From: Candidatus Latescibacterota bacterium
Lineage (GTDB): Bacteria > Latescibacterota > UBA2968 > GCA-2709665
Length of the DNA: 64,000 nucleotides
Assembly: GCA_965203805.1 (NCBI GenBank)
Contig: OZ241917.1
Coordinates: forward strand, 2,336,001 to 2,400,000
Direction of reading: 5' to 3'
Shown here: piece by piece, positions 9,051-64,000 of the stretch
Numbering within the stretch: position 1 is the stretch's first letter
Layout of the letters: the number at the start of each line of letters is the position of its first letter
Position numbers and translations under genes: made by a program
The notes under the pieces: model-generated
Seen by the model: only the letters and a program-made list of their open reading frames with translations
The model's database searches: none
Told to the model about the DNA's origin: nothing

Positions 9051-10298
9051 ATGACCGGAAACCTCAATCGTCTGTCGCTTCTCCTGGTTTTCTGTTTTAC
9101 TTTCGTGCATCCGGCGCGTGGACAGCGTCCGACGTTGATCTGGCAGCCTGAGAATTCCGCGACGCAACGTTCGACAGACTCGCTGGCGGACTTCGACGGC
9201 GACGGCGACGTCGGGTTTTCGGATTTCGTGCTGTTCGCGCGCAGTTTCAACGCCCGGGAAGGCGAAGCGGCGTACGACGCCCGGCTGGACCTGAACGGCG
9301 ACGGCACCGTCAACTTTCCCGATTTTATCGCGTTCAGCGCCGCATTTGGCGGCGTTTCCAACGGTGCGACGTCCACCCGCCATGCGGTTTACGTACTCGA
9401 CCCGGTGTTGGGAGGGGCGGCGATTTTCGATTCGGAATCCCATCTGCTAACGGACTATCTGAGGTTCCGGGGTCCCACCGGTATCGCGGTCTCCGCTGAC
9501 GAGCGGGCTGTTTACGTCTCGGAAGGATTCGGGCTTTTCGCCATAAACGCAAATCACGAAGCGCTGTTCTCGATACCAACGGAGTCTCAGGGACGTGTCG
9601 TGCTCAGCCCCGACGAGCAGTTCGCTTACGTGACCGAAGAACGACACGACCGGTTGGTGGTGCTGGACCTGGTCGCCCGGATTCCCGTGGATACGATTTC
9701 GGTCGGCGACCGGCCGATCGACGTGGCGATCACCCCGGACGGGAAAAAGCTCTACGTGGCGAACGCCGACAGCCGCGACGTTACCGTCATCGACGTGGAT
9801 CAGGGGGAGGTCGTGGCCGGCATAATCATCGGCGGCGTCCCCGGTGAGATCGACGTTACGGCGGACGGGGCGCGGGCGTACGTGACGAACGTCGACCGGG
9901 GTGTGGTTTCGGTTTTGGATTTGAATTCGGATCGGGTTGCGGGGGGCATCCAGCTGAGGGGAGATTCCGCGAGGGGGCTGGCGTTCTCGCCAGACGGCCA
10001 GACGCTCTACGTGGCTTCCACGGGCACGCAGACCGGCGGATTCCTGCTCTCCGTCGACGTGCAGCGCAATCTCATATCCCGGCGGCTCCACGTGGGCGAC
10101 GCCGCGTCCACGGTCGGCGTCTCGCCGGATGGCTCGCGCCTTTACATCGGCACGCTGGTGCTGGACGGCGGCGGCCCGGGCCTGAGCGCCGTCGACCTGA
10201 ATGACTGGCGGGTGCTGGGGCGGGTGCTGGGAGTCGACTTTATCGCACAGTTCGCCTTCCGCACTCTGTCTGAGCGGGAGTCCGCGGGGGATCGCTGA
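9051..10298 (+). CDS. Secreted EF-hand/dockerin-like plus YVTN beta-propeller protein
   Basis: Signal peptide; DFDGDGDVGFSDF and DLNGDGTVNFPDF loops; repeated SPDG..YV(T/A)N units. Confidence 0.8.
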   Translation: MTGNLNRLSLLLVFCFTFVHPARGQRPTLIWQPENSATQRSTDSLADFDGDGDVGFSDFVLFARSFNAREGEAAYDARLDLNGDGTVNFPDFIAFSAAFGGVSNGATSTRHAVYVLDPVLGGAAIFDSESHLLTDYLRFRGPTGIAVSADERAVYVSEGFGLFAINANHEALFSIPTESQGRVVLSPDEQFAYVTEERHDRLVVLDLVARIPVDTISVGDRPIDVAITPDGKKLYVANADSRDVTVIDVDQGEVVAGIIIGGVPGEIDVTADGARAYVTNVDRGVVSVLDLNSDRVAGGIQLRGDSARGLAFSPDGQTLYVASTGTQTGGFLLSVDVQRNLISRRLHVGDAASTVGVSPDGSRLYIGTLVLDGGGPGLSAVDLNDWRVLGRVLGVDFIAQFAFRTLSERESAGDR

Positions 10299-10873: not shown

Positions 10874-11705
10874 TCTCCAGGGCAGCCCAGGGGTTGATGA
10901 AGGTGGTCGTCCCTACCTGTACGGCGGATGCGCCGACAATCAGGAACTCGATTGCATCTTCAGCCGTCGCAATGCCGCCCATACCGACAACCGGAATCGA
11001 GACCGTGTTTGCGACCCGCCAGACCATCGCCAGCGCGACCGGCTTGACGGCAGGTCCGGATAGGCCGCCGGTAACGTTGCCCAGAACGGGACGCCGGGTG
11101 CCGATGTCCACGGCCAGCCCCAGGAGCGTGTTGATCAGCGCGATGCTGTCGGCGCCCCCTTCTTCCACCGCCGCGGCCACCACGGCGATGTCGGTTACGT
11201 TGGGCGTGAGCTTGACGATGACCGGAAGTCTGGATACCGCCTTTACTGCCGCCGTGACACCGTACGCGGCCGTCTCCCGACATCCGAAGAGCTGACCGCC
11301 GTCCTTCATATTCGGCGACGAGATGTTCAATTCGAGGGCGTCGATCTCCGGTATGTCGTTGAACCGGCGCGCCATTTCGGCGAATTCGTCGTTCGAGGTG
11401 CCGGCGATGCTGACAATCCGCGCTGTGGAAAGCGCCTGCAGTGCAGGGACCCTTTCCTCAATAAACGCGTCGATACCGGGATTCGTGAGGCCGATGGAGT
11501 TGAGCATTCCCGACGGGGTCTCCGCGGTACGGGGGGTGGTGTTTCCCGCGCGCGGACGATTGGTGATGGTCTTGGTGACCACGCCGCCGACCTGCGCAAA
11601 GTCAAGCACGCCCGCGTACTCTGCGCCGTGCCCGATGGTCCCGGAGGCCATCATCACGGGGTTCCTGATGGTCAGGCCGCCTCCGATGTGCGTGGAAAGG
11701 TCCAT
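10782..11705 (-). CDS. pyrD: Dihydroorotate dehydrogenase 1B catalytic subunit
   Basis: NPVMMASGT, NSIGL.NPG, VKLTPNVTDI, GGLSGPAVKP; active-site loop reads NISSPN. Confidence 0.92.
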   Translation of the reverse strand: MDLSTHIGGGLTIRNPVMMASGTIGHGAEYAGVLDFAQVGGVVTKTITNRPRAGNTTPRTAETPSGMLNSIGLTNPGIDAFIEERVPALQALSTARIVSIAGTSNDEFAEMARRFNDIPEIDALELNISSPNMKDGGQLFGCRETAAYGVTAAVKAVSRLPVIVKLTPNVTDIAVVAAAVEEGGADSIALINTLLGLAVDIGTRRPVLGNVTGGLSGPAVKPVALAMVWRVANTVSIPVVGMGGIATAEDAIEFLIVGASAVQVGTTTFINPWAALEIVDGLAEYCRSQRIGRISDLVGSFETGPRG

Positions 11706-11783
11706 GGGCGTTATGAGAGGTGCGTCCTTGCAGGGAAACGCCCGTCAACGCAGGGCTACCCTGTGGGGACGGCCATGGGCCGT

Positions 11784-12578
11784 CTACCAGACGATGGCAT
11801 GGGCGTCCACCACCGGTCCTTCAATGCAGACCCGTCGATATCGATGATCTTCCCGATCCGCTTCCAGGTATTCCACCACACAGCCCATACAGGCGCCGAA
11901 TCCGCAGGCCATATGGTTTTCGAGTGATGCGAAGCAAGGCAGACGGTGCTCGGCTGCGATCCCGGCGACCCGCGCCATCATAGGGTGCGGGCCGCAGGCA
12001 AGGACCTGGGTTTCGCCGGACCGCACGTGTGCCGGAATCAGGTCCGTTACAGGGCCTCTGTGCCCAAGGCTCCCATCGTCCGTTGCAAGGCGTCGACACA
12101 GATCGGGGGGAATCACGCGATCCATCTCGGGCATACGCACTTTGTTCGCAGCCCCCATCAGGAGAACCATTTCGGCTCGACGTTCCTTGTAGAACCAGGC
12201 CGAAAAGGCAAGGGGGACCAGCCCCACGCCCCCGGCGACCAGTAGCAGCCGGTCGGCATCGGGCGGGACAAAGGCCTGGCCCAGCGGGCCGAGCAGGTCG
12301 AGATGCCGGCCGGCCGGGGCCGCGGCCATTCTGCGCGTGCCTTCGCCGATGGCGTCGTAGACGATCTCCAGCCATCCCGCTTCGGCATCCACGCGCAGCG
12401 CGCTGAACGGGCGCCGGAGATAGGGCGTCCGGCCGGGATCGGTAAGGACCTGAACAAACTGGGCGGGGCGGCAGGACCGGGCAATTCCCGGGGCGCGCAG
12501 ACGCATCAGGTAGACGTTTCGAGCAATCCGCTCGTTGACGAGGATTTCGGCGTTTTCCTGGAAGAATCGTGAATTCAT
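11784..12578 (-). CDS. pyrK: Dihydroorotate dehydrogenase electron transfer subunit
   Basis: LRRPFS, AGGVGLVPL, ACGP, MACGFGACMGC...VCIEGPV (2Fe-2S). Confidence 0.92.
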   Translation of the reverse strand: MNSRFFQENAEILVNERIARNVYLMRLRAPGIARSCRPAQFVQVLTDPGRTPYLRRPFSALRVDAEAGWLEIVYDAIGEGTRRMAAAPAGRHLDLLGPLGQAFVPPDADRLLLVAGGVGLVPLAFSAWFYKERRAEMVLLMGAANKVRMPEMDRVIPPDLCRRLATDDGSLGHRGPVTDLIPAHVRSGETQVLACGPHPMMARVAGIAAEHRLPCFASLENHMACGFGACMGCVVEYLEADREDHRYRRVCIEGPVVDAHAIVW

Positions 12579-54565: not shown

Positions 54566-54727
54566 TCGGACGCGATCTCACGCCGGAGATCCCCCGGCGT
54601 CAGCACTGGAAGCCCGCGCTTTCCTTTTTGTTTCTGACTCTTTTCGCCATTCCGATTCAATCACTGTTCTAATGAACGATTCTCGCCGGGCTGCCGCCTT
54701 TGATGGCGAGATTGTGTGCCAGTTAAT

Positions 54728-55492
54728 TTACCTCTCGTACAGAGTCTCAATTGGCCGATAGTCACTGGAAACCGGAAGCCGGCGTTCGATCACTTCTCCA
54801 TGCTCGACGTGAAGGGAATACGCTCCCGCCCCGGGACTGGCGGCGATGATCCTGTACCCGTCGGATGTAAACGCGACCGCGCAGTCGTTGTCGATGGCCA
54901 GGCCGTTCCCGCGCTTCCGTTTCATCATCTCATGGAAGTCCCGCCTTCTAGGGACGCCGGCGGTGTCTCCGTTGTAGTGAGGACACGCCAGACCTCTCAA
55001 CAACCCCATCCCGGTGACGGCTATGTAGCGCCAGTCGTCAGGCCTGTAGAACGACATCGAATCGCTGTGGCCCCGCTCAAACCAGCAGATCGCGCCCGCG
55101 CTCACGCCGCACAGCACCGCTCCCCCGGCGTACGCGGACCTGATCAGGGCATCGACCCCCAGCCGACGCCACCGGCGCATCATCTTCAGCGTGTTACCGC
55201 CCCCGGCGTAGATGATGTCCGCGCGTTCGATCTTCTCCGCAATCGCCTCGCGCGAAGGCGCAGCACCCAGAAGGTAGAGCACATCGGTGTCACAGCCGTA
55301 GTTCTCACGATACGCCCGGTCGAACCCTTCCCAATACGACACCGAGTCGCTGCTGGCCGTGGGAATGAACAGCGCGTTCGGACGCGACACGCCGGACAGC
55401 GCGATGATCTCGACGTCTATGGGGCGGGTTGCCAATGTTTCGAGGTCCCCTCCCCCTATCGCAACGATGCTGCCCATGCCGCTAACCTCCAC
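54728..55492 (-). CDS. Peptidase E (S51)
   Basis: IVAIGGG, FIPTAS, GGGNT, GVSAGAICW, CPHY. Confidence 0.88.
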   Translation of the reverse strand: MEVSGMGSIVAIGGGDLETLATRPIDVEIIALSGVSRPNALFIPTASSDSVSYWEGFDRAYRENYGCDTDVLYLLGAAPSREAIAEKIERADIIYAGGGNTLKMMRRWRRLGVDALIRSAYAGGAVLCGVSAGAICWFERGHSDSMSFYRPDDWRYIAVTGMGLLRGLACPHYNGDTAGVPRRRDFHEMMKRKRGNGLAIDNDCAVAFTSDGYRIIAASPGAGAYSLHVEHGEVIERRLPVSSDYRPIETLYER

Positions 55493-55732: not shown

Positions 55733-55987
55733 GTGAAAACCGCTCTCGTTCAAATCGGTAATTCGCGCGGCATCCGCATCCCCAAGGCGTTCCTGGAACA
55801 GTGTCACCTTCAGGACGTCGTGGAACTCGAACACCACGGCGACCATTTGATTATTCGCCCACCGACCCAACCTCGGTGCGGATGGGACGACGCCTTTCGC
55901 AACATGGGCAAACACCAGGACGACACACTAGTCGACGACCAGTCTCAGCCAGCTACCGAGTGGGACAACACGGAGTGGGAATGGTAG
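55733..55987 (+). CDS. mazE: AbrB/MazE family antitoxin
   Basis: GGAGG RBS, GTG start, IGNSRGIRIPK, acidic EWEW tail. Confidence 0.88.
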   Translation: MKTALVQIGNSRGIRIPKAFLEQCHLQDVVELEHHGDHLIIRPPTQPRCGWDDAFRNMGKHQDDTLVDDQSQPATEWDNTEWEW

Positions 55988-56304
55988 TTGCGCGTTTCGA
56001 CGTCTACCTGGTGCGGCTCGATCCTACACAAGGGCGCGAGATTCAAAAAACGCGCCCTTGTGTCGTAATATCGCCGGATGAGATGAACCGGCACATAGAA
56101 ACCGTCATCGTTGCCCCGATGACTACAAAAGGTCGCACTTATCCCACCCGCGTCCCCTTGCGTTTTCAGAGAAAAGTCGGACAGATCGTACTCGATCAGG
56201 TACGCACCGTTGACAAATCACGCCTGGTCCGTCGCCTTGGAAAGATTAGCGACAGGGCGGCGCTGCAGATCCTTTCTGTGCTGAAGGAGATGTTCGCGTC
56301 GTAG
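55981..56304 (+). CDS. mazF: PemK/MazF toxin
   Basis: LDPTQGREIQKTRPCVVISPDEMN, IVAPMT, DQVRTVDK.RL; overlaps the antitoxin stop. Confidence 0.92.
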   Translation: MVVARFDVYLVRLDPTQGREIQKTRPCVVISPDEMNRHIETVIVAPMTTKGRTYPTRVPLRFQRKVGQIVLDQVRTVDKSRLVRRLGKISDRAALQILSVLKEMFAS

Positions 56305-56670: not shown

Positions 56671-56757
56671 TGACAAGGCGGTACCGTCCGGGAAAATGGG
56701 ACTGGGCATGCCGCCGTTCGGCGATTCCAATCCCTTGCGGCTGAAGGCGACTTTCAT
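56630..56757 (-). pseudogene. 5' fragment of an Nmad3-like (nucleotide modification associated domain 3) gene, copy 1
   Basis: MKVAFSRKGLESPNGGMPSPIFPDGTALSLPIP resembles the recalled SRKGFDS..GG.PSPI.PDG...SLPIP N-terminus; similarity ends after about 40 aa. Confidence 0.6.
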
Positions 56758-56878
56758 GGATTCCCTGCCTCCCTGGATTCATTTCGGTTGCAAAAACCCA
56801 CGGTTTGATTGGAAGTCAAATTAGGGGTAAACGTCAGGGGCTTGTAGAGCGTGAATAGGGGGAAGTTTATTCCCAAGC

Positions 56879-56960: not shown

Positions 56961-57599
56961 TTAAGTCACAGCCGACACGTTACCGTATGATTTTTGAGGC
57001 GCTACAACAATCGGTTCTTCTGTCTCAATAACTTCTGTATCATCCTCGACTGTATCAGTTGTAAGTTCATCGATAAAATCGACGATTTTTGCCATGTCTT
57101 TCTGATTTGGCGTTTGTCCCTGAAGATTATTGAAACTGTATAGGAAAAGTCGCAGGATATTATATAGGTAATCCTTATAGAAGGTATTCACTCCTGTATG
57201 AATAGCCTTATCTCCCTGTACCAGATCAGCTAGCTTATTAAGGTAGTCGCGAATTTCAAACACACGTTGCTTAATGGCATGTGTTGCCACAGTTTCTGTT
57301 GAATCTGTTTTGTCGGTATCCAGGATAATCGTAACGTTCATGCCCAGGGCACTTGCGTGTTTGAAAAGAAAAGGTACGCTTATTCGATGGTCAGTGCCAT
57401 CCTCCAATGCCGCAATTTCCTTTTTTGACATACCCATCTTCTTCGCCAATTGTCTTTGGGTCATGTCCTTAGAACACCGGAGCGCACATAGTGCGCTTAT
57501 GACGATTCGATCCGCTAAACGTCGCTCTAACCGGCGTACAGAAGTAGCGGAGAGATTGTCCTGTGCCATTTCTAACACCGAATTATACGGAGCGGCCAT
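56961..57599 (-). CDS. XRE-family HTH protein, probable antitoxin with C-terminal extension
   Basis: LRCSKDMTQRQLAKKMGMSKKEIAALEDG; overlaps the upstream toxin-like gene. Confidence 0.8.
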   Translation of the reverse strand: MAAPYNSVLEMAQDNLSATSVRRLERRLADRIVISALCALRCSKDMTQRQLAKKMGMSKKEIAALEDGTDHRISVPFLFKHASALGMNVTIILDTDKTDSTETVATHAIKQRVFEIRDYLNKLADLVQGDKAIHTGVNTFYKDYLYNILRLFLYSFNNLQGQTPNQKDMAKIVDFIDELTTDTVEDDTEVIETEEPIVVAPQKSYGNVSAVT

Positions 57600-57957
57600 T
57601 CGGTTTCTCCATTTCTAGTTTATGAATATAATCATGTCCCCAAAGGATATCGTGTTTTTGGGACTTTTTAAACCCAATGGCGATCAAATGAATCATAGAA
57701 GTCTCTAATTCCAAATAAAAGTATAATCGCGCTTCCGGCAATTTAAACGGCGCACCTCGTTGATCTACCGCGTAGAGTCCGTGACCCTCATTACGTACCT
57801 TTCCAAGCCGTACGATATTTTGAGGTCTATCAGAAATCTGTAAGGTCTCTTGCACGGTCGCTAGATTCTCAAGAAGTGCCTCCAAAGTGGCGCCATGTTT
57901 CTTACCGAATCTCTTCAATTGCCGCTGAAATTTATCCGAATGAAGAAACTCCCACAT
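57583..57957 (-). CDS. RelE/HigB-like toxin
   Basis: 124 aa; KFQRQLKRF, GLYAV, ARLYFY, IHLIAIG.K.SQ..DI; toxin-before-HTH order. Confidence 0.7.
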   Translation of the reverse strand: MWEFLHSDKFQRQLKRFGKKHGATLEALLENLATVQETLQISDRPQNIVRLGKVRNEGHGLYAVDQRGAPFKLPEARLYFYLELETSMIHLIAIGFKKSQKHDILWGHDYIHKLEMEKPNGRSV

Positions 57958-58004: not shown

Positions 58005-58033
58005 ATTATATATGGGCAAATCTCACTTGTCAA
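58005..58033 (-). promoter_or_regulatory. Consensus sigma-70 promoter for the toxin/HTH operon
   Basis: Minus strand TTGACA (58033-58028), 17 nt, TATAAT (58010-58005); adjacent inverted repeat AGTCCAA-N12-TTGGACT (58033-58058). Confidence 0.75.
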
Positions 58034-58203: not shown

Positions 58204-58302
58204 GAATCCAGTCGGAAGCCGGCATCCGCAGGCACGAACAGACCTGCCCGTCCATCATCCGTTTTTCTGACTGACCACTGACACTGATCACCGACCACTG
58301 CT
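58204..58302. repeat. 99-bp duplicate of the CRISPR array flank (paralogue of 62962-63060)
   Basis: Ungapped manual alignment gives 83/99 identity; both copies abut a degenerate repeat. Confidence 0.9.
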
Positions 58303-58350
58303 GCTTCACTCCTTGTCCTGATGGAAGATTCCCAGCGTGCCGATCAAGCC

Positions 58351-58527
58351 TCAGTCAGTATCCTGATCGGCGAAACGGCGGTCCATCTCAGCCCAGTGAG
58401 CGAGCTGCTCGGGGGTGGGGACGGGCATACCGGCCTTGCGGTAGTCTTCCGGCGAGTAGGGCGTCCCGTCCGGATGCCAGCACTGGAAAGCGGCGGGCTG
58501 CTGGCGATTTCGGATATCTTTCGGCAT
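58351..58527 (-). CDS. Repeat-associated small protein, paralogue 1 (58 aa; absent from the ORF track)
   Basis: MPKDIRNRQQPAAFQCWHPDGTPYSPEDYRKAGMPVPTPEQLAHWAEMDRRFADQDTD; ATG 5 nt after the repeat. Confidence 0.78.
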   Translation of the reverse strand: MPKDIRNRQQPAAFQCWHPDGTPYSPEDYRKAGMPVPTPEQLAHWAEMDRRFADQDTD

Positions 58528-58655
58528 AAGCAGTTCTAATCCTTTCTCTGATGGAAGATTCTCGCCGGGAATGACGGCAGAATCCAGCAGCGGGGAGGGA
58601 GATCCTTCCAGGTGACCAAATTCTATGAGGTGGAGCTGATGTATCCGACACGGGA

Positions 58656-58841
58656 TTAACCGAAGTAACGGGCCTTGATCTCCGCGATCGTCCGATCCAT
58701 CCGGTCCCGGTGAGCCCGGTGCTCAGGCGTCGGGACGGGCATCCCCGCCTTGCGATAGTCCGCATCGGAATAGGGGGTTCCATCCGGATGCCAGACTTCA
58801 AAGATCTTCGGACCTTCTCGATTTTGGAAATCCTGTGGCAT
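58656..58841 (-). CDS. Repeat-associated small protein, paralogue 2 (61 aa)
   Basis: MPQDFQNREGPKIFEVWHPDGTPYSDADYRKAGMPVPTPEHRAHRDRMDR...; ATG 5 nt after the repeat. Confidence 0.78.
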   Translation of the reverse strand: MPQDFQNREGPKIFEVWHPDGTPYSDADYRKAGMPVPTPEHRAHRDRMDRTIAEIKARYFG

Positions 58842-58910
58842 AAGCAGTTTCAATCCTTTCTGTGATGGAAGTTTCTCACCGCGTATTTTCTCGTGGAGCT
58901 TGATTGAGGA

Positions 58911-59084
58911 CTAGCGGTCTTCGCTGGCGCGTTCATGGTCCTGTTCAGCCCACAAGGCCATTTGCTCAGGGATGGGGACGGGGAGGCCGATACGGCGGTA
59001 GTCTTCCGGGGTGGCCGGTGTGCCGTATGGACGCCAGACGCGCCACGGGCCGCCGGTTTGTTTGTTGTGCTTTGGTGTGGTCAT
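58911..59084 (-). CDS. Repeat-associated small protein, paralogue 3 (57 aa)
   Basis: MTTPKHNKQTGGPWRVWRPYGTPATPEDYRRIGLPVPIPEQMALWAEQD...; ATG 4 nt after the repeat. Confidence 0.75.
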   Translation of the reverse strand: MTTPKHNKQTGGPWRVWRPYGTPATPEDYRRIGLPVPIPEQMALWAEQDHERASEDR

Positions 59085-59149
59085 ATCGGTTTCAGTCCTT
59101 GTTTTGATGGAAGATTCTCGCCGGGAATTCACTCGGCATTGCTACGTCT

Positions 59150-59485
59150 TCAGTTGGAAGCCCTGGGTACGGGCGTGGCGACGGGCTTGTCCGTCCGGTA
59201 GTACTGGCTTCGACGTCCTACGATATGGGCCCTGCCCTGTTCGACGGCATCAAGGTCGAAATTGCCCGATCCATGGTCTCGGATAAACGACCGGGCCAGG
59301 ATGCGGCCGCGCGGTGACAATTTCAGGTGCCGGAACAACTCGTCGACCGTCGCGTCGCTGGCAAATTCGCCCCGCATCGTGTTAACGGCTACCGCCTGGA
59401 GCCGGGACAGGTACGCGACTTCGTCCATGTGTTTACGGACGCCGTATTTGCCCTTCCTCGGCTTATCTATGACGAATCTGGGCAT
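59150..59485 (-). CDS. Hypothetical basic protein (111 aa) in the fourth inter-repeat gap
   Basis: ORF lies wholly between repeats, same strand as the paralogues; no recognised motif. Confidence 0.55.
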   Translation of the reverse strand: MPRFVIDKPRKGKYGVRKHMDEVAYLSRLQAVAVNTMRGEFASDATVDELFRHLKLSPRGRILARSFIRDHGSGNFDLDAVEQGRAHIVGRRSQYYRTDKPVATPVPRASN

Positions 59486-59723
59486 AGAGCGGACCCCAAT
59501 ATCGGGTTGCCTGTACGGCTGCGCTGCTGGTCTCTCCGGTCACACGGTCCCGGGTGTTTTCGAGGGAACGCTCGCCGCCAGGAAGCGAGCTCTCGTCAAA
59601 CCCCAGCTTATGATTGTTGTTTCAATCGTTGTACTGATGGAAGATTCTCGCCGGGCGTGGCGATACGGGCGGCTTTGGACATCAACCGGCGAAGCGAATG
59701 GGCTGTGAACCCGAGGCCGGTTG

Positions 59724-62814: not shown

Positions 62815-62916
62815 CGCCGATCGCGGCGCCGTCAACGTGAAACGGTCGCCGTCGCCGGAAAAGAGGGCTGCGCAGTTCACCGAGTTGAATTACTTGCGCC
62901 TGAAGACGATCTTCAT
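62815..62916 (-). pseudogene. Decayed Nmad3-like 5' fragment, copy 2
   Basis: ATG 62916: MKIVFRRK*FNSVN..SPLF../DGDRFTL; DNA aligns with 56713-56803 at a constant 6159-bp offset. Confidence 0.6.
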
Positions 62917-63060
62917 CGATTCTCCGCCTTTCCAGTTTCATTTCGGTTCTGATGACCCACGGAATCCAGGCGGAAGTCGGCATCCTCCGGCACGCAAATT
63001 CCCGCCCATGCATGATCCGTTTTGCTGACTGGTCACTGACACTGATCACCGACCACTGCC

Positions 63061-64000
63061 GCTGCAATCCTTGTTCTGATGGAAGATTCTCTCTGAGATG
63101 AGCAGATCGAAAAACGGCCCGGTGTGTATCACGGGTTTCAATCCTTGTTCTGATGGAAGATTCTCTCTGAGTGTTCGTCGGGCAACATCGTCCGCCCCAG
63201 ACCTTCCTGTTTCAATCCTTGTTCTGATGGAAGATTCTCTCTGAGTCTCCGTGGACGGGTTGATGTTCTGTCTTTGCACGTGTTGTTTCAATCCTTGTTC
63301 TGATGGAAGATTCTCTCTGAGTCCACGTCGGCATCCAGTTCGATACCGAGATAATGTGGTTTCAATCCTTGTTCTGATGGAAGATTCTCTCTGAGAAGTC
63401 CGCCCCAGATATAACCCCAATATACCCACGTGTTTCAATCCTTGTTCTGATGGAAGATTCTCTCTGAGACGGCGAGCCCAACTATCGCGCCGAAGAAGGT
63501 GACTCCAGTTTCAATCCTTGTTCTGATGGAAGATTCTCTCTGAGCGCTTAGAGCGTCTCTATTGCGTTCTGCGATACCGGTTTCAATCCTTGTTCTGATG
63601 GAAGATTCTCTCTGAGCGCGTAATAAAGCGCTTCACCACCGTCAAAGCCTTCCGGTTTCAATCCTTGTTCTGATGGAAGATTCTCTCTGAGAATCGGGCG
63701 GCCCGTCTTTTACGCGTACAACAACAGTTTCAATCCTTGTTCTGATGGAAGATTCTCTCTGAGACATCACATCTTCAGGATCACCGAGTGTGGCGATCTG
63801 TTTCAATCCTTGTTCTGATGGAAGATTCTCTCTGAGCCAAGCGTTGGCGCGGGCCACGCCGTCGACGGACTCCATGTTTCAATCCTTGTTCTGATGGAAG
63901 ATTCTCTCTGAGCGCAAGGGGTTCCCCGAGCACCAGGCCCTGATTTAGTTTCAATCCTTGTTCTGATGGAAGATTCTCTCTGAGTTCGAATGATACCGAT
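63061..64000 (-). CRISPR. CRISPR array: 13 repeats and 12 complete spacers (35-39 bp); continues past the window
   Basis: Repeat GTTTCAATCCTTGTTCTGATGGAAGATTCTCTCTGAG at 63061 (2 mismatches), 63135, 63209, 63285, 63359, 63432, 63508, 63580, 63655, 63727, 63800, 63876, 63948. The reverse complement ends in ATTGAAAC and the degenerate copy is at 63061, so transcription on the minus strand is inferred. Confidence 0.98.

Follow-up and report, generated by a model that had tools for sequence, protein, structure and literature searches.

What is a CRISPR repeat doing directly in front of the start codon of a protein-coding gene? The question arises in a stretch of 64,000 nucleotides from a Candidatus Latescibacterota bacterium (hereafter the window), where three small paralogous ORFs on the minus strand, A, B and C, each have their ATG 4-5 nt behind a degenerate 37-nt copy of a type I-B CRISPR repeat (Table 1). 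A sequence-only reading of the region had placed three paralogues at positions 58351-59084, which proved to run exactly from the stop of A to the start of C, and had proposed that the genes were amplified together with a repeat as a unit. This co-amplification is real, as evidenced by the 15-mer core of the repeat that, with up to 3 mismatches allowed, occurs 21 times in the window against 1.5 times expected from shuffles. Absent from that reading were the identity of the repeat as the CRISPR repeat of the adjacent array and the position of its end, 4-5 nt before each ATG.

Table 1. Positions in the window of the microprotein genes, the repeat-like sequences and the elements of the neighbouring array.
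Feature	Position	Strand	Remarks
Microprotein A, 58 aa	58351..58527	-	ORF; family profile E 1e-36; ATG 5 nt past R2
Microprotein B, 61 aa from ATG at 58841	58656..58841	-	ORF, family profile; ATG 5 nt past R3
Microprotein C, 57 aa from ATG at 59084	58911..59084	-	ORF, family profile; ATG 4 nt past R4
Fourth microprotein copy, truncated (16 codons, then stop)	54600..54650	-	ATG 3 nt past R0
orf111, 111-aa ORF filling the R5-R4 interval, second cassette type	59150..59485	-	
Repeat-like R0, outlying copy	54654..54690	-	
Repeat-like R1, terminal, most degenerate	58303..58339	-	followed by trailer-like sequence
Repeat-like R2, 5' leader of gene A	58533..58569	-	
Repeat-like R3, 5' leader of gene B	58847..58883	-	
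Repeat-like R4, 5' leader of gene C	59089..59125	-	
Repeat-like R5, first repeat of the pseudo-array	59619..59655	-	133 nt upstream of the 111-aa ORF
Trailer-like sequence after R1	58204..58302	-	duplicate of the genuine array's trailer
Genuine type I-B CRISPR array, trailer end	63061..64000	-	65 repeats; runs on to genome position 2403847

Three genes of an unnamed microprotein family

The core that had been described from the sequence, W(H/R)P(D/Y)GTP-x3-(E/A)DYR(K/R)xG(M/L)PVP(T/I)PE, is common to A, B and C and holds 19 invariant columns, with B being 60% and C 47% identical to A. The paralogues find each other by tblastn with E values of 2e-19 (A-B), 4e-13 (A-C) and 1e-5 (B-C), and the same search of the organism's own genome returned them as the only full copies, along with a 16-codon remnant at 54650..54603. 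Note that an alternative upstream start of gene B, a TTG at 58853, falls within the repeat; the N-termini of the B homologues start at the ATG at 58841 and not at this TTG.

Silent codon differences within the core had earlier been taken as a sign of selection on the protein, and the wider comparison bears this out. Between the paralogues of the window the p-distance is 0.60-0.77 at synonymous and 0.25-0.51 at non-synonymous sites, and for the 165 of 325 sequence pairs that were usable (0.05<dS<2.5) the median dN/dS is 0.34 and the maximum 0.71, with no pair above 1. Frequent frameshifts in homologues, named beforehand as an observation that would speak against the genes, did not appear: 4 of 30 copies are broken, three of them in relatives, the other being the truncated fourth copy of the window. 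All three ORFs are genuine protein-coding genes, members of a small unnamed family, and the microprotein is under purifying selection.

The earlier impression that no family is recognisable held up in all searches. The microproteins gave no family match in Pfam, NCBIfam or PADLOC, and only one of 25 members matched a PHROG (E 0.0039). A Foldseek search of PDB and BFVD with the AF2 model, a short hairpin followed by two helices (pLDDT 76), yielded no match at E<=0.001, the best Z in VIA-align wide was 3.0, and the ESM Atlas held no usable match for microprotein A. The product is a mildly acidic, soluble protein of ~58 residues, and nearly all database members of the family are unnamed. The family profile matched residues 18-48 of PDB 2f4q_A (E 2e-4); the N-terminal domain of type IB topoisomerases (PF21338) was considered and rejected, as no member matches it even at E<=10, a genome-wide PF21338 search of genome G000 was empty, and an hhalign comparison with six TopIB N-domains of the phylum reached a probability of 0.7% (E 0.08). 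Two larger proteins of 451 and 464 aa contain the motif internally and show only sub-threshold HTH-like Pfam matches; these fused forms may be merged gene calls.

A pseudo-array beside a type I-B CRISPR-Cas locus

Just upstream of the microprotein cluster, and on the same strand, lie a genuine CRISPR array and a cas operon. The array consists of 65 identical repeats with periods of 72-77 nt, and on the minus strand its repeat terminates in ATTGAAAC, which we take to be the 8-nt 5' handle that crRNAs of type I-B (Cas6b systems) usually carry. Beyond the array the genes follow in the order cas4, cas2, cas1, cas3, cas5, cas7 (Cst2/DevR), candidate cas8b and cas6b, as evidenced by NCBIfam matches for Cas4, Cas2, Cas1, Cas3, Cas5b and Cst2/DevR and by Pfam matches for Cas6b_N and Cas6b_C; the candidate Cas8b (575 aa) gave a weak match to Cas_CXXC_CXXC (E 9e-4). 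The Cas6b gene occupies positions 11601-12275 of locus L001, on the minus strand. With cas6b, cas7, cas5, cas3, cas1-cas2-cas4 and a candidate cas8b beside an array, the locus has the context by which type I-B is defined.

The repeat-like sequences of the window carry 2-6 mismatches in 31 nt, and the cluster reads R5-orf111-R4-C-R3-B-R2-A-R1-trailer. A bona fide CRISPR array has near-identical repeats and unique spacers of about 30-40 nt, and the stretch 58303-59655 was rejected as such, since its repeats differ among themselves and the intervals between them (193, 277, 205 and 493 nt) are not spacer-sized. The cluster is a pseudo-array in which whole genes stand in place of the "spacers". The second cassette type, orf111, has a homologue of 37% identity that likewise lies between two repeat-likes, in locus L007; it matched nothing in Pfam or PADLOC and belongs to no known family, and recognition in the ESM Atlas was low, with GyrB-insert rows sharing 138-141 features, a chance-like result. 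At the far end of the cluster, positions 58204-58331 are 85% identical to 62962-63089, the terminal repeat and trailer of the genuine array, and terminal repeat and trailer are thus present in duplicate in the window. A similar sequence follows the terminal repeats in loci L003 and L004. The pseudo-array may be a diverged trailer-side offshoot of the type I-B array.

Conservation of the repeat and of its junction with the ATG

We further compared the divergence of the repeat with that of the genes behind it. The mean p-distance is 0.21 for the 31-nt repeat part, 0.305 for non-synonymous and 0.67 for synonymous sites, and the repeat is less diverged than the synonymous sites in 206 of 210 pairs; these pairs are not independent, as one genus supplies nearly all units and recent transfer is all that separates some of them, so that homogenisation by recombination could mimic selection. 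Conservation starts at the boundary of the 37-nt repeat, the upstream flank showing 0.1-0.7 bits per position, and since linkers of 4 and 5 nt shift its frame against the ORF, no conserved peptide is read from the repeat. Constraint acts on the repeat, and its junction with the ATG is conserved. This junction is kept in 22 of 26 intact copies, the relatives being almost all from one genus: in 21 an I-B-like repeat ends 2-5 nt before the ATG (4 nt in 12, 5 nt in 8 and 2 nt in 1), and one further copy starts 5 nt past the terminal repeat of a type I-C array. Four intact copies (L003_7400, L013, L014 and L019_16040) have no repeat, which is therefore not indispensable. The length of the linker is inherited by descent and, at 4-5 nt, is weak evidence of constraint.

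In the cassette repeats the first 12 nt are variable and the last 25 nt nearly fixed, and the same holds for the genuine array repeats of genomes G000, G052 and G054. This agreement with array repeats points to CRISPR machinery or gene conversion and not to the ribosome. The 3' 25-mer of the repeat carries on average 3.0 mismatches in Cas6b-positive (n=5) and 2.27 in Cas6b-negative (n=15) genomes; conservation of the repeat is independent of Cas6b.

The five repeats of the cluster fold weakly, with MFE values of -1.2 to -3.7 kcal/mol and z of +0.3 to +1.6. No sigma-70-like promoter or terminator was found on the minus strand within the cluster, and neither the scan for sigma-70-like sites nor the folding of the repeats revealed a promoter or stem-loop in the repeat joints. 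At the usual distance the genes lack a Shine-Dalgarno sequence of their own, and the sole motif of this type is an AGGA within the repeat that starts at -15 or -16. Genome-wide, 493 such motifs lie at the peak position of -11, 151 at -15 and 107 at -16, with a background near 55. Against a leader role of the repeat stand this position of the motif and the length of the conserved stretch, 25-37 nt, which exceeds what a translation-start region normally requires.

Distribution of the cassettes and rearrangement at the repeats

The family is almost wholly confined to one genus of uncultured Candidatus Latescibacterota. It is carried by 13 of the 15 genomes of the genus and by 14 of the 168 genomes of the phylum, in all cases on the chromosome and with 1-6 microprotein copies per carrier genome. 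A scan of metagenomes added one further locus, and one locus, L013, is titled Binatia, that is, outside the phylum. Spread across phyla was set aside, as the two loci titled Gemmatimonadota are contigs placed in the window's own genus, and we claim no transfer. A UDG-like neighbour was likewise rejected as an obligate partner of the microprotein, as only 8 of the 15 genomes of the genus have it and it is broken or partial in 2 of the 5 genomes where the microprotein adjoins. Other neighbours in relatives include ZacA/B/C and HEC-05, as assigned by PADLOC. Genes for ParA and for a 192-aa protein belong to the island as well, along with the UDG-like gene and orf111.

Among relatives, the repeats are sites at which whole genes are gained, lost or duplicated. 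In the comparison of contigs (run X4) one contig was found to repeat a 230-nt unit, and another has a 1635-nt insert inside R1. The I-B array of genome G054 is broken by inserts of ~5.4 and ~1.6 kb between perfect repeats, and genomes G055 and G002 contain a patchwork of I-B-like and I-C-like repeats. Rearrangements occur at the repeats.

Possible functions of the repeat-led genes

The explanation that we put first, tentatively and with somewhat less than an even chance of being right, is that of repeat-bounded cassettes, in which the repeat would be both a 5' leader under constraint and a joint for crossover and, where a type I-B system is present, a Cas6b site in addition. Gene and degenerate 37-nt repeat would together form one cassette, the unstructured repeat providing the context for translation start as well as the crossover point for duplication, loss and reshuffling of cassettes. 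In type I-B genomes, the window's included, it should double as a cutting site for Cas6b, and such a cut would leave an mRNA whose 5' end is the 8-nt handle AUUGAAAC, located 12-13 nt upstream of the AUG. We infer that the genes are transcribed, and transcribed together, that they are translated, that the repeat functions as their leader and that Cas6b cuts it. For the microprotein itself we can offer a guess from its context, namely a small factor, binding or regulatory, that belongs to the defence island next to the CRISPR locus; we do not think that it is a toxin enforcing the retention of cas genes.

The carriers without Cas6b or the searched cas families are of particular relevance to these questions. 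A match to Cas6b_C was not obtained in 10 of the 13 carrier genomes of the genus, and in two complete carrier genomes none of six searched cas families (including cas1, cas2, Cst2-type cas7, Cas6b and, above the cut-off, cas3) was found. Both complete genomes nevertheless keep intact genes and well-preserved repeats. Intact copies without Cas6b or the searched cas families argue against an obligate Cas regulator and against an addiction toxin; of the candidate roles named in the sequence-only reading (toxin, Cas regulator, phage sensor), the first two thus agree poorly with the distribution.

They also bear on the strongest of the alternatives, in our estimate still an unlikely one, according to which the cassettes are processed like crRNAs and their output reports whether the type I-B machinery is present and free. 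Either the Cas6b cut would leave an 8-nt handle that recruits Cas5 and Cas7, with Cascade subunits coating the first codons, or it would part the AGGA motif from the AUG; the microprotein would be a feedback regulator or alarm, similar to CreTA but acting on the mRNA itself. Such a sensor of CRISPR status agrees with the geometry of the locus, as the AUG falls on 'spacer' positions 5-8, the repeat of the transcribed strand ends in the usual type I-B handle, and the genes for Cas6b, Cas5 and Cas7 lie upstream on the same strand. It also agrees with the conservation of the whole 37-nt repeat, whose variable and fixed parts are those of functional array repeats. ORFs running into the next repeat, where a cut would take off the stop codon, made up 0 of 5 in Cas6b-positive and 7 of 17 in Cas6b-negative genomes (Fisher p=0.13, a hint only). 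Against it stand the 10 carriers unmatched for Cas6b_C, the two complete genomes that retain genes and repeats without the searched cas families, and the fact that repeats without Cas6b are no more decayed than those with it; with the loss of type I-B undated in each genome, these carriers make the sensor less probable without refuting it.

Rather unlikely is also a reading in which the cluster would be a natural coding CRISPR array, with genes in spacer positions, mRNAs cut by Cas6b, translation gated by Cascade and a protein as the read-out of CRISPR-Cas status. The start codon would take the seed position, so that Cascade subunits could assemble on the message, and the units would swap between arrays much like integron cassettes.

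We regard it as improbable that the repeat is a mere relic without present function, the genes having been inserted or having arisen in the old trailer end of the array. Decaying repeats would then stay linked to the genes, sometimes refreshed by gene conversion, and only the proteins would matter. Degenerate repeats with 2-6 mismatches, three broken copies in relatives and a truncated one in the window, four intact copies lacking a repeat and arrays of the genus that are visibly interrupted by insertions would all be expected from such a history, as would the I-B-like repeats found elsewhere, which flank larger genes at a variable distance of 20-75 nt. Against the relic stand a repeat that diverges less than synonymous sites (0.21 vs 0.67) in nearly all pairs and the sharp end of conservation at the repeat boundary, and conversion tracts of just 37 nt between diverged flanks would be unusual in genomes with 1-10 copies and no array.

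Very unlikely in our view is a role of the repeats in crRNA-like regulatory RNAs of the CreA, CreR or 'CRISPR-supervised' kind, whose guides would direct Cascade to a nearby promoter and for which the ORFs would be regulated cargo or incidental. The setting is suggestive, a defence island beside a type I array with ZacA/B/C and HEC-05 as neighbours in relatives, and three reports, in their accessible portions, document such control by ectopic repeats in type I systems (PMC10120712; 10.1101/2024.12.27.630466; 10.1101/2024.01.05.574328). A second repeat is moreover found 59-78 nt upstream in 5 of 31 profile hits, four of them units in relatives with an I-C-like repeat and the fifth L019_15390, which follows the end of a genuine I-C array. 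What lies as 'spacer' between the paired repeats of relatives, however, resembles array trailer, and distances to the next repeat in the window are 193-493 nt, which is not a spacer length. The 36 nt after each of seven repeats, searched against both strands of genome positions 2386000-2416000, matched only themselves, paralogues or sites at the chance level of 14-19/36, and the post-repeat sequences are conserved as protein and not as nucleotides.

The least credible alternative, to which we assign hardly any weight, is an anti-CRISPR brought in by a mobile element together with a Racr-like RNA decoy, the solitary repeat, that recombined into the array: the protein is indeed small, mildly acidic and without known family, and solitary units mimicking host repeats are known from viruses according to the accessible part of PMC10651486, but no relative is encoded in any of 74 pattern-matching stretches of IMG/VR viral contigs, a single one of 25 members touches a PHROG and the model found no fold match in BFVD, 13 of the 15 genomes of the genus carry the genes, and do so on the chromosome, the cassettes and the island are hit by none of the 186 spacers taken from five arrays, and the genes adjoin a seemingly active host array of 65 identical repeats.

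Relation to known systems and implications

The locus shares with CreTA and CreA-CreP the presence of degenerate ectopic type I repeats by a small gene at a CRISPR-cas locus, and the cargo CreP is likewise a small protein, of 103 aa; CreA, as described in the accessible part of the source, has a spacer-sized guide flanked by two repeats, the guide pairing with the toxin promoter by a PAM (10.1101/2024.01.05.574328). Here, in contrast, repeat and start codon adjoin, a whole gene (at least 193 nt) separates this repeat from the next, no promoter match was found within 30 kb around the locus, and intact copies persist without the searched cas genes, which an addiction toxin should not tolerate. 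CreR, mini-arrays and 'CRISPR-supervised' elements are also standalone repeat-likes around type I loci by defence-island cargo, but they are non-coding, have spacers of normal size and act on DNA, and the accessible parts of the two reports describe neither a repeat fused to a start codon nor genes in spacer position (PMC10120712; 10.1101/2024.12.27.630466). Viral solitary repeat units and RNA anti-CRISPRs are similar in being single repeats outside arrays, often by small genes, but are carried by viruses or plasmids as far as the accessible text of PMC10651486 goes, whereas the microprotein units are chromosomal, genus-wide and were not found in IMG/VR.

Our search of the literature returned no description of microprotein gene cassettes led by a CRISPR repeat. 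Engineered Cas6 or Csy4 sites reportedly allow operon transcripts to be cut into separate mRNAs, and a Cas6-type site directly upstream of a coding sequence would in the same way free an mRNA with a defined 5' end; those constructs are synthetic, however, and cutting in the present case is predicted from the sequence. A natural counterpart of such Cas6-cut operon mRNAs was not found in the literature searched.

To our knowledge, what ectopic CRISPR repeats have so far been seen to yield is small guide-like RNAs (CreA, CreR, Racr). What is new here is a repeat that is joined directly to the start codon of a conserved protein gene and kept better than its silent sites. If Cas6b cuts this repeat or Cascade binds it, this would be the first known natural case of CRISPR RNA processing controlling a protein-coding message, and a ready-made design for Cas6-insulated operons. 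If it works without Cas proteins, debris of an array would have been recruited as gene leader and recombination joint, which would help to explain the diversification of defence islands beside arrays. Should the reading as a coding array be true, gene expression and cassette mobility would have a general signal in co-opted CRISPR repeats. Either way, the cassettes add an unannotated microprotein family, most copies of which fall below the usual comfort range of gene calling.

The type I-B locus and the pseudo-array

The three minus-strand open reading frames A, B and C described by the sequence-only reading are present as stated, and the repeat that it held to be amplified together with them proved to be the CRISPR repeat of the adjoining array. 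This genuine array comprises 65 copies of a 37-nt repeat with periods of 72-77 nt. Beyond it lie, all on the minus strand, cas4, cas2, cas1, cas3, cas5, cas7 (Cst2/DevR), a 575-aa candidate cas8b and cas6b, and array and cas genes together are a complete type I-B CRISPR-Cas locus in which cas8b is a candidate only. As the minus-strand reading of the repeat has the 3' end ATTGAAAC and the copy at 63061 is a degenerate terminal repeat, the array is most likely transcribed on the minus strand, which is also the strand of the microprotein genes. Note that spacers 55 and 60 (as counted) are 94% alike.

Features of the type I-B locus and the microprotein cluster (window coordinates unless indicated)
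Feature	Coordinates	Strand	Description
cas genes	L001 4019-12275	-	cas6b, candidate cas8b, cas7, cas5, cas3, cas1, cas2, cas4
Genuine array, type I-B	63061-64000, on to genome position 2403847	- (most likely)	repeat copies
R5	59655..59619	-	degenerate repeat copy
orf111	59150-59485	-	111 aa, family not known; occupies the R5-R4 interval, first of the pseudo-array
R4	59125..59089	-	degenerate repeat copy
Microprotein C	59084..58911	-	ORF, 57 aa
R3	58883..58847	-	degenerate repeat copy
Microprotein B	58841..58656	-	ORF, 61 aa
R2	58569..58533	-	degenerate repeat copy
Microprotein A	58527..58351	-	ORF, 58 aa
R1	58339..58303	-	degenerate repeat copy
Promoter	58033..58005		perfect TTGACA-17-TATAAT
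124-aa gene	57583-57957		in 1.4-kb insert
HTH gene	56961-57599		in 1.4-kb insert
MazF/PemK-like toxin ORF	55801-56304	+	
Peptidase S51 gene	54728-55492	-	
R0	54690..54654	-	degenerate repeat copy, outlier
Microprotein remnant	54650..54603		16 codons

A ParA-like gene, a 192-aa ORF and a weak UDG-like gene separate the array from a cluster of degenerate repeat copies, in which the gap between repeat and ATG is 4 nt from R4 to C and 5 nt from R3 to B and from R2 to A. Searches with each protein against its own 5.87-Mb genome (tblastn) returned only A, B and C as full copies (A-B E 2e-19, A-C 4e-13), with the 16-codon remnant in addition; this truncated fourth copy begins 3 nt past R0. A homologue of orf111, 37% identical, lies between two repeat-like copies in a relative (L007, 5513-5791), making orf111 a second kind of repeat-bounded cassette. 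Behind R1 comes a sequence that shares 85% identity with the genuine array's trailer. With its repeat-like copies, orf111, the microprotein genes and a trailer-like end, the cluster is thus a pseudo-array in which whole genes take the place of the four "spacers" (493, 205, 277 and 193 nt).

Downstream of the cluster follows the start of an Nmad3 gene. Terminal repeat, trailer and Nmad3 start are present twice (56712-56803 and 58204-58331 versus 62871-63089), the second copy being interrupted by an insert with an HTH gene and a 124-aa gene behind a perfect promoter, which looks like a toxin-antitoxin pair. In relatives, ZacA/B/C and HEC-05 (GmrSD-like) genes are found in the corresponding neighbourhood, marking the region as a defence island. 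The window also has an ORF for a MazF/PemK-like toxin and a gene for a peptidase S51; in locus L005 of a relative, a repeat-like copy and then an intact microprotein gene come directly after the S51 gene, where the window shows only the truncated copy. A second CRISPR-Cas locus may exist some 0.5 Mb away from the window, where there are another Cas2 match and sub-threshold matches to a cas3-core-like helicase (genome positions 2883641-2890580 and 2899451-2899645).

The microprotein family

The full-length alignment of A, B and C, whose start codons were set by homology, shows 19 columns without variation; identity to A is 60% for B and 47% for C. An AF2 model from a 25-row alignment (mean pLDDT 76) predicts a short hairpin (residues 17-23) and two helices (26-31 and 39-55), and by inspection none of the three sequences contains a hydrophobic segment. 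Fold and sequence searches with the microprotein yielded no match of note; a local similarity of residues ~9-37 to the hairpin-helix at the N-terminus of a bacterial type IB topoisomerase (PDB 2f4q_A 18-48, E 2e-4) failed in Pfam and in profile-profile comparison (hhalign) and was rejected.

A profile search of 5.8 billion proteins retrieved 22 clusters of 56-95 aa, one named, as "hypothetical protein", and none with a Pfam domain. Searched exhaustively with the profile, 1.84 billion representatives yielded 55 matches at E<=1e-3, several of them long repeat proteins that share a short motif only. Within the phylum the family occurs in 14 of 168 genomes, namely in 13 of the 15 of the window's genus (that of the window organism counted) and one of the two of a sister genus, and in no other taxonomic family among the 168 searched. 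The species-representative collection supplied twelve loci and metagenomes a further one; no relatives were found in IMG/VR viral contigs. One locus, titled Binatia, lies outside the phylum. The other relatives are titled Latescibacterota, except that L007 and L012 are titled Gemmatimonadota yet assigned (G053:C12, G052:C73) to the window's genus; the labels conflict, and since both are placed in that genus we make no claim of cross-phylum spread.

The silent-site differences from which the sequence-only reading had argued for selection on the protein are real (synonymous p-distance among A, B and C 0.60-0.77), and its argument holds: Nei-Gojobori counting over 325 pairs, 137 of which are saturated, left 165 with 0.05<dS<2.5, with a median dN/dS of 0.34, a maximum of 0.71 and none above 1. 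The reading frame is thus coding and under purifying selection.

Conservation of the repeat-to-ATG junction

The loci analyzed held 31 profile matches, from which 26 intact, distinct units remained after removal of one duplicate and three broken copies (four matches). An I-B-like repeat (<=9 mismatches in 31 nt) precedes the ATG by 2-5 nt in 21 of these, with linkers of 4 nt (n=12), 5 nt (n=8) and 2 nt (n=1); in another the start lies 5 nt past the terminal repeat of a genuine type I-C array, and four lack a repeat. When units are aligned on the repeat end, conservation begins at the boundary of the 37-nt repeat, the flank before it reaching 0.1-0.7 bits per position. As linkers of both 4 and 5 nt occur, the repeat stands in differing frames to the ORF from unit to unit and is therefore not a translated N-terminal extension.

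In the 210 pairs with a repeat in both units, the mean p-distance was 0.21 for the repeat, 0.67 for synonymous and 0.305 for non-synonymous sites, and in 206 of them the repeat had diverged less than synonymous sites had. As description, this is strong evidence that the repeat is constrained more than silent sites; the pairs are non-independent, stemming from one genus and in part reflecting recent transfer, and their statistics serve as description rather than as a formal test. Nearly all evidence on these units is drawn from one genus. The cassette of repeat and gene is a real, conserved unit.

Probable recombination at the repeats and predicted expression

Carrier genomes hold 1-6 microprotein copies. 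The I-B array of G054 (L055/L056, G054:C5 18120-27877) is broken into blocks of 26, 4 and 7 repeats, with perfect repeats on either side of the two inserts (~5.4 and ~1.6 kb), and in G055 and G002 I-C-like and I-B-like repeats form a patchwork around microprotein genes. In G053, a genome without an I-B array, four I-B-like repeats 625-947 nt apart (L059, G053:C34 281926-284363) flank larger genes, named by eye from their translations as Exo_endo_phos-like, a ~200-aa ORF and ADP-ribosylglycohydrolase-like. In L009 a single nucleotide separates a repeat-like copy (9511-9541) from the ATG of a 403-aa DUF6361/ZacA gene (ORF from 9543), behind which ZacB- and ZacC-like genes lie; larger defence genes, too, are thus led by such copies. 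Contigs from two runs with the label sponge metagenome contain the B-C-orf111 stretch, ~90-92% identical and in the same order; one contig repeats a single 230-nt unit. For REARRANGEMENT at the repeats, these observations, along with the twofold presence of terminal repeat, trailer and Nmad3 start in the window, point to recombination there.

Inside the cluster no sigma-70-like promoter or terminator was found on the minus strand and the repeats are unstructured upon folding, suggesting that the cassettes are probably read through from upstream. The genome uses Shine-Dalgarno sequences with a peak of starts at -11; the sole similar motif near the microprotein genes is an AGGA within the repeat, whose start at -15 or -16 falls into the tail of the genome's distribution.

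Our tentatively preferred reading gives the repeat two roles, as a 5' leader that has been retained and as a joint for recombination; where a genome bears I-B, it would be a Cas6b site too.

Dependence on Cas proteins

Cas6b or Cascade might instead gate translation, making the microprotein genes a sensor of CRISPR status, a reading that fits the full-length conservation of the repeat. Carriers without Cas proteins fit it poorly, and we consider it doubtful. Cas6b_C is found in four of 22 genomes of the taxonomic family, in the genus in G000 (the window organism), G052 and G054 only. A 25-mer of the I-B type forms arrays (38-91 matches) in these three and in G062 and G065, occurs just 1-10 times in ten other genomes and is absent from the two microprotein-less genomes of the genus. 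Note that in G062, with 82 copies and no match to Cas6b_C, the array may be an orphan or cas6b may have been missed. In G001, G002 and G005 the genuine arrays next to the units carry quite different repeats, and the nearby cas genes resemble a type I-G set in G001 and a type I-C set in the other two. The complete genomes G003 and G004 have intact units, and a search for cas1, cas2, cas3, Cst2-type cas7 and Cas6b found none of them there, in the case of cas3 none above cut-off. The repeat is no more decayed without Cas6b (2.27 mismatches in 25 nt) than with it (3.0). Among genomes lacking Cas6b, between-genome pairs retain a median dN/dS of 0.30 (55 usable of 113). Together these findings are the chief evidence against a simple CRISPR-coupled reading.

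That the repeat is a pure relic seems unlikely to us.

Very improbable is a role of the repeat-like copies as crRNA-like regulators: in a test for CreA/crlRNA-type guides, the 36-nt stretches behind seven repeats gave only self, paralogue and chance-level matches to the 30 kb around the locus, and no second repeat at spacer distance exists in the window. Among 186 spacers taken from five arrays there is no match to the cassettes. We give hardly any credence to the microprotein being an anti-CRISPR leftover.

Our literature search, conducted on main texts, found no case in which a repeat directly adjoins the start codon of a conserved protein gene; in the passages covered, ectopic repeats figure solely as sources of guide-like RNAs. 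As far as those passages show, ectopic CRISPR repeats with cargo are already known, and new here are the microprotein family and the repeat abutting its start codon. If the repeat is indeed a leader and joint, the protein would, at a guess, be a small, soluble factor that serves the defence island in binding or regulation.
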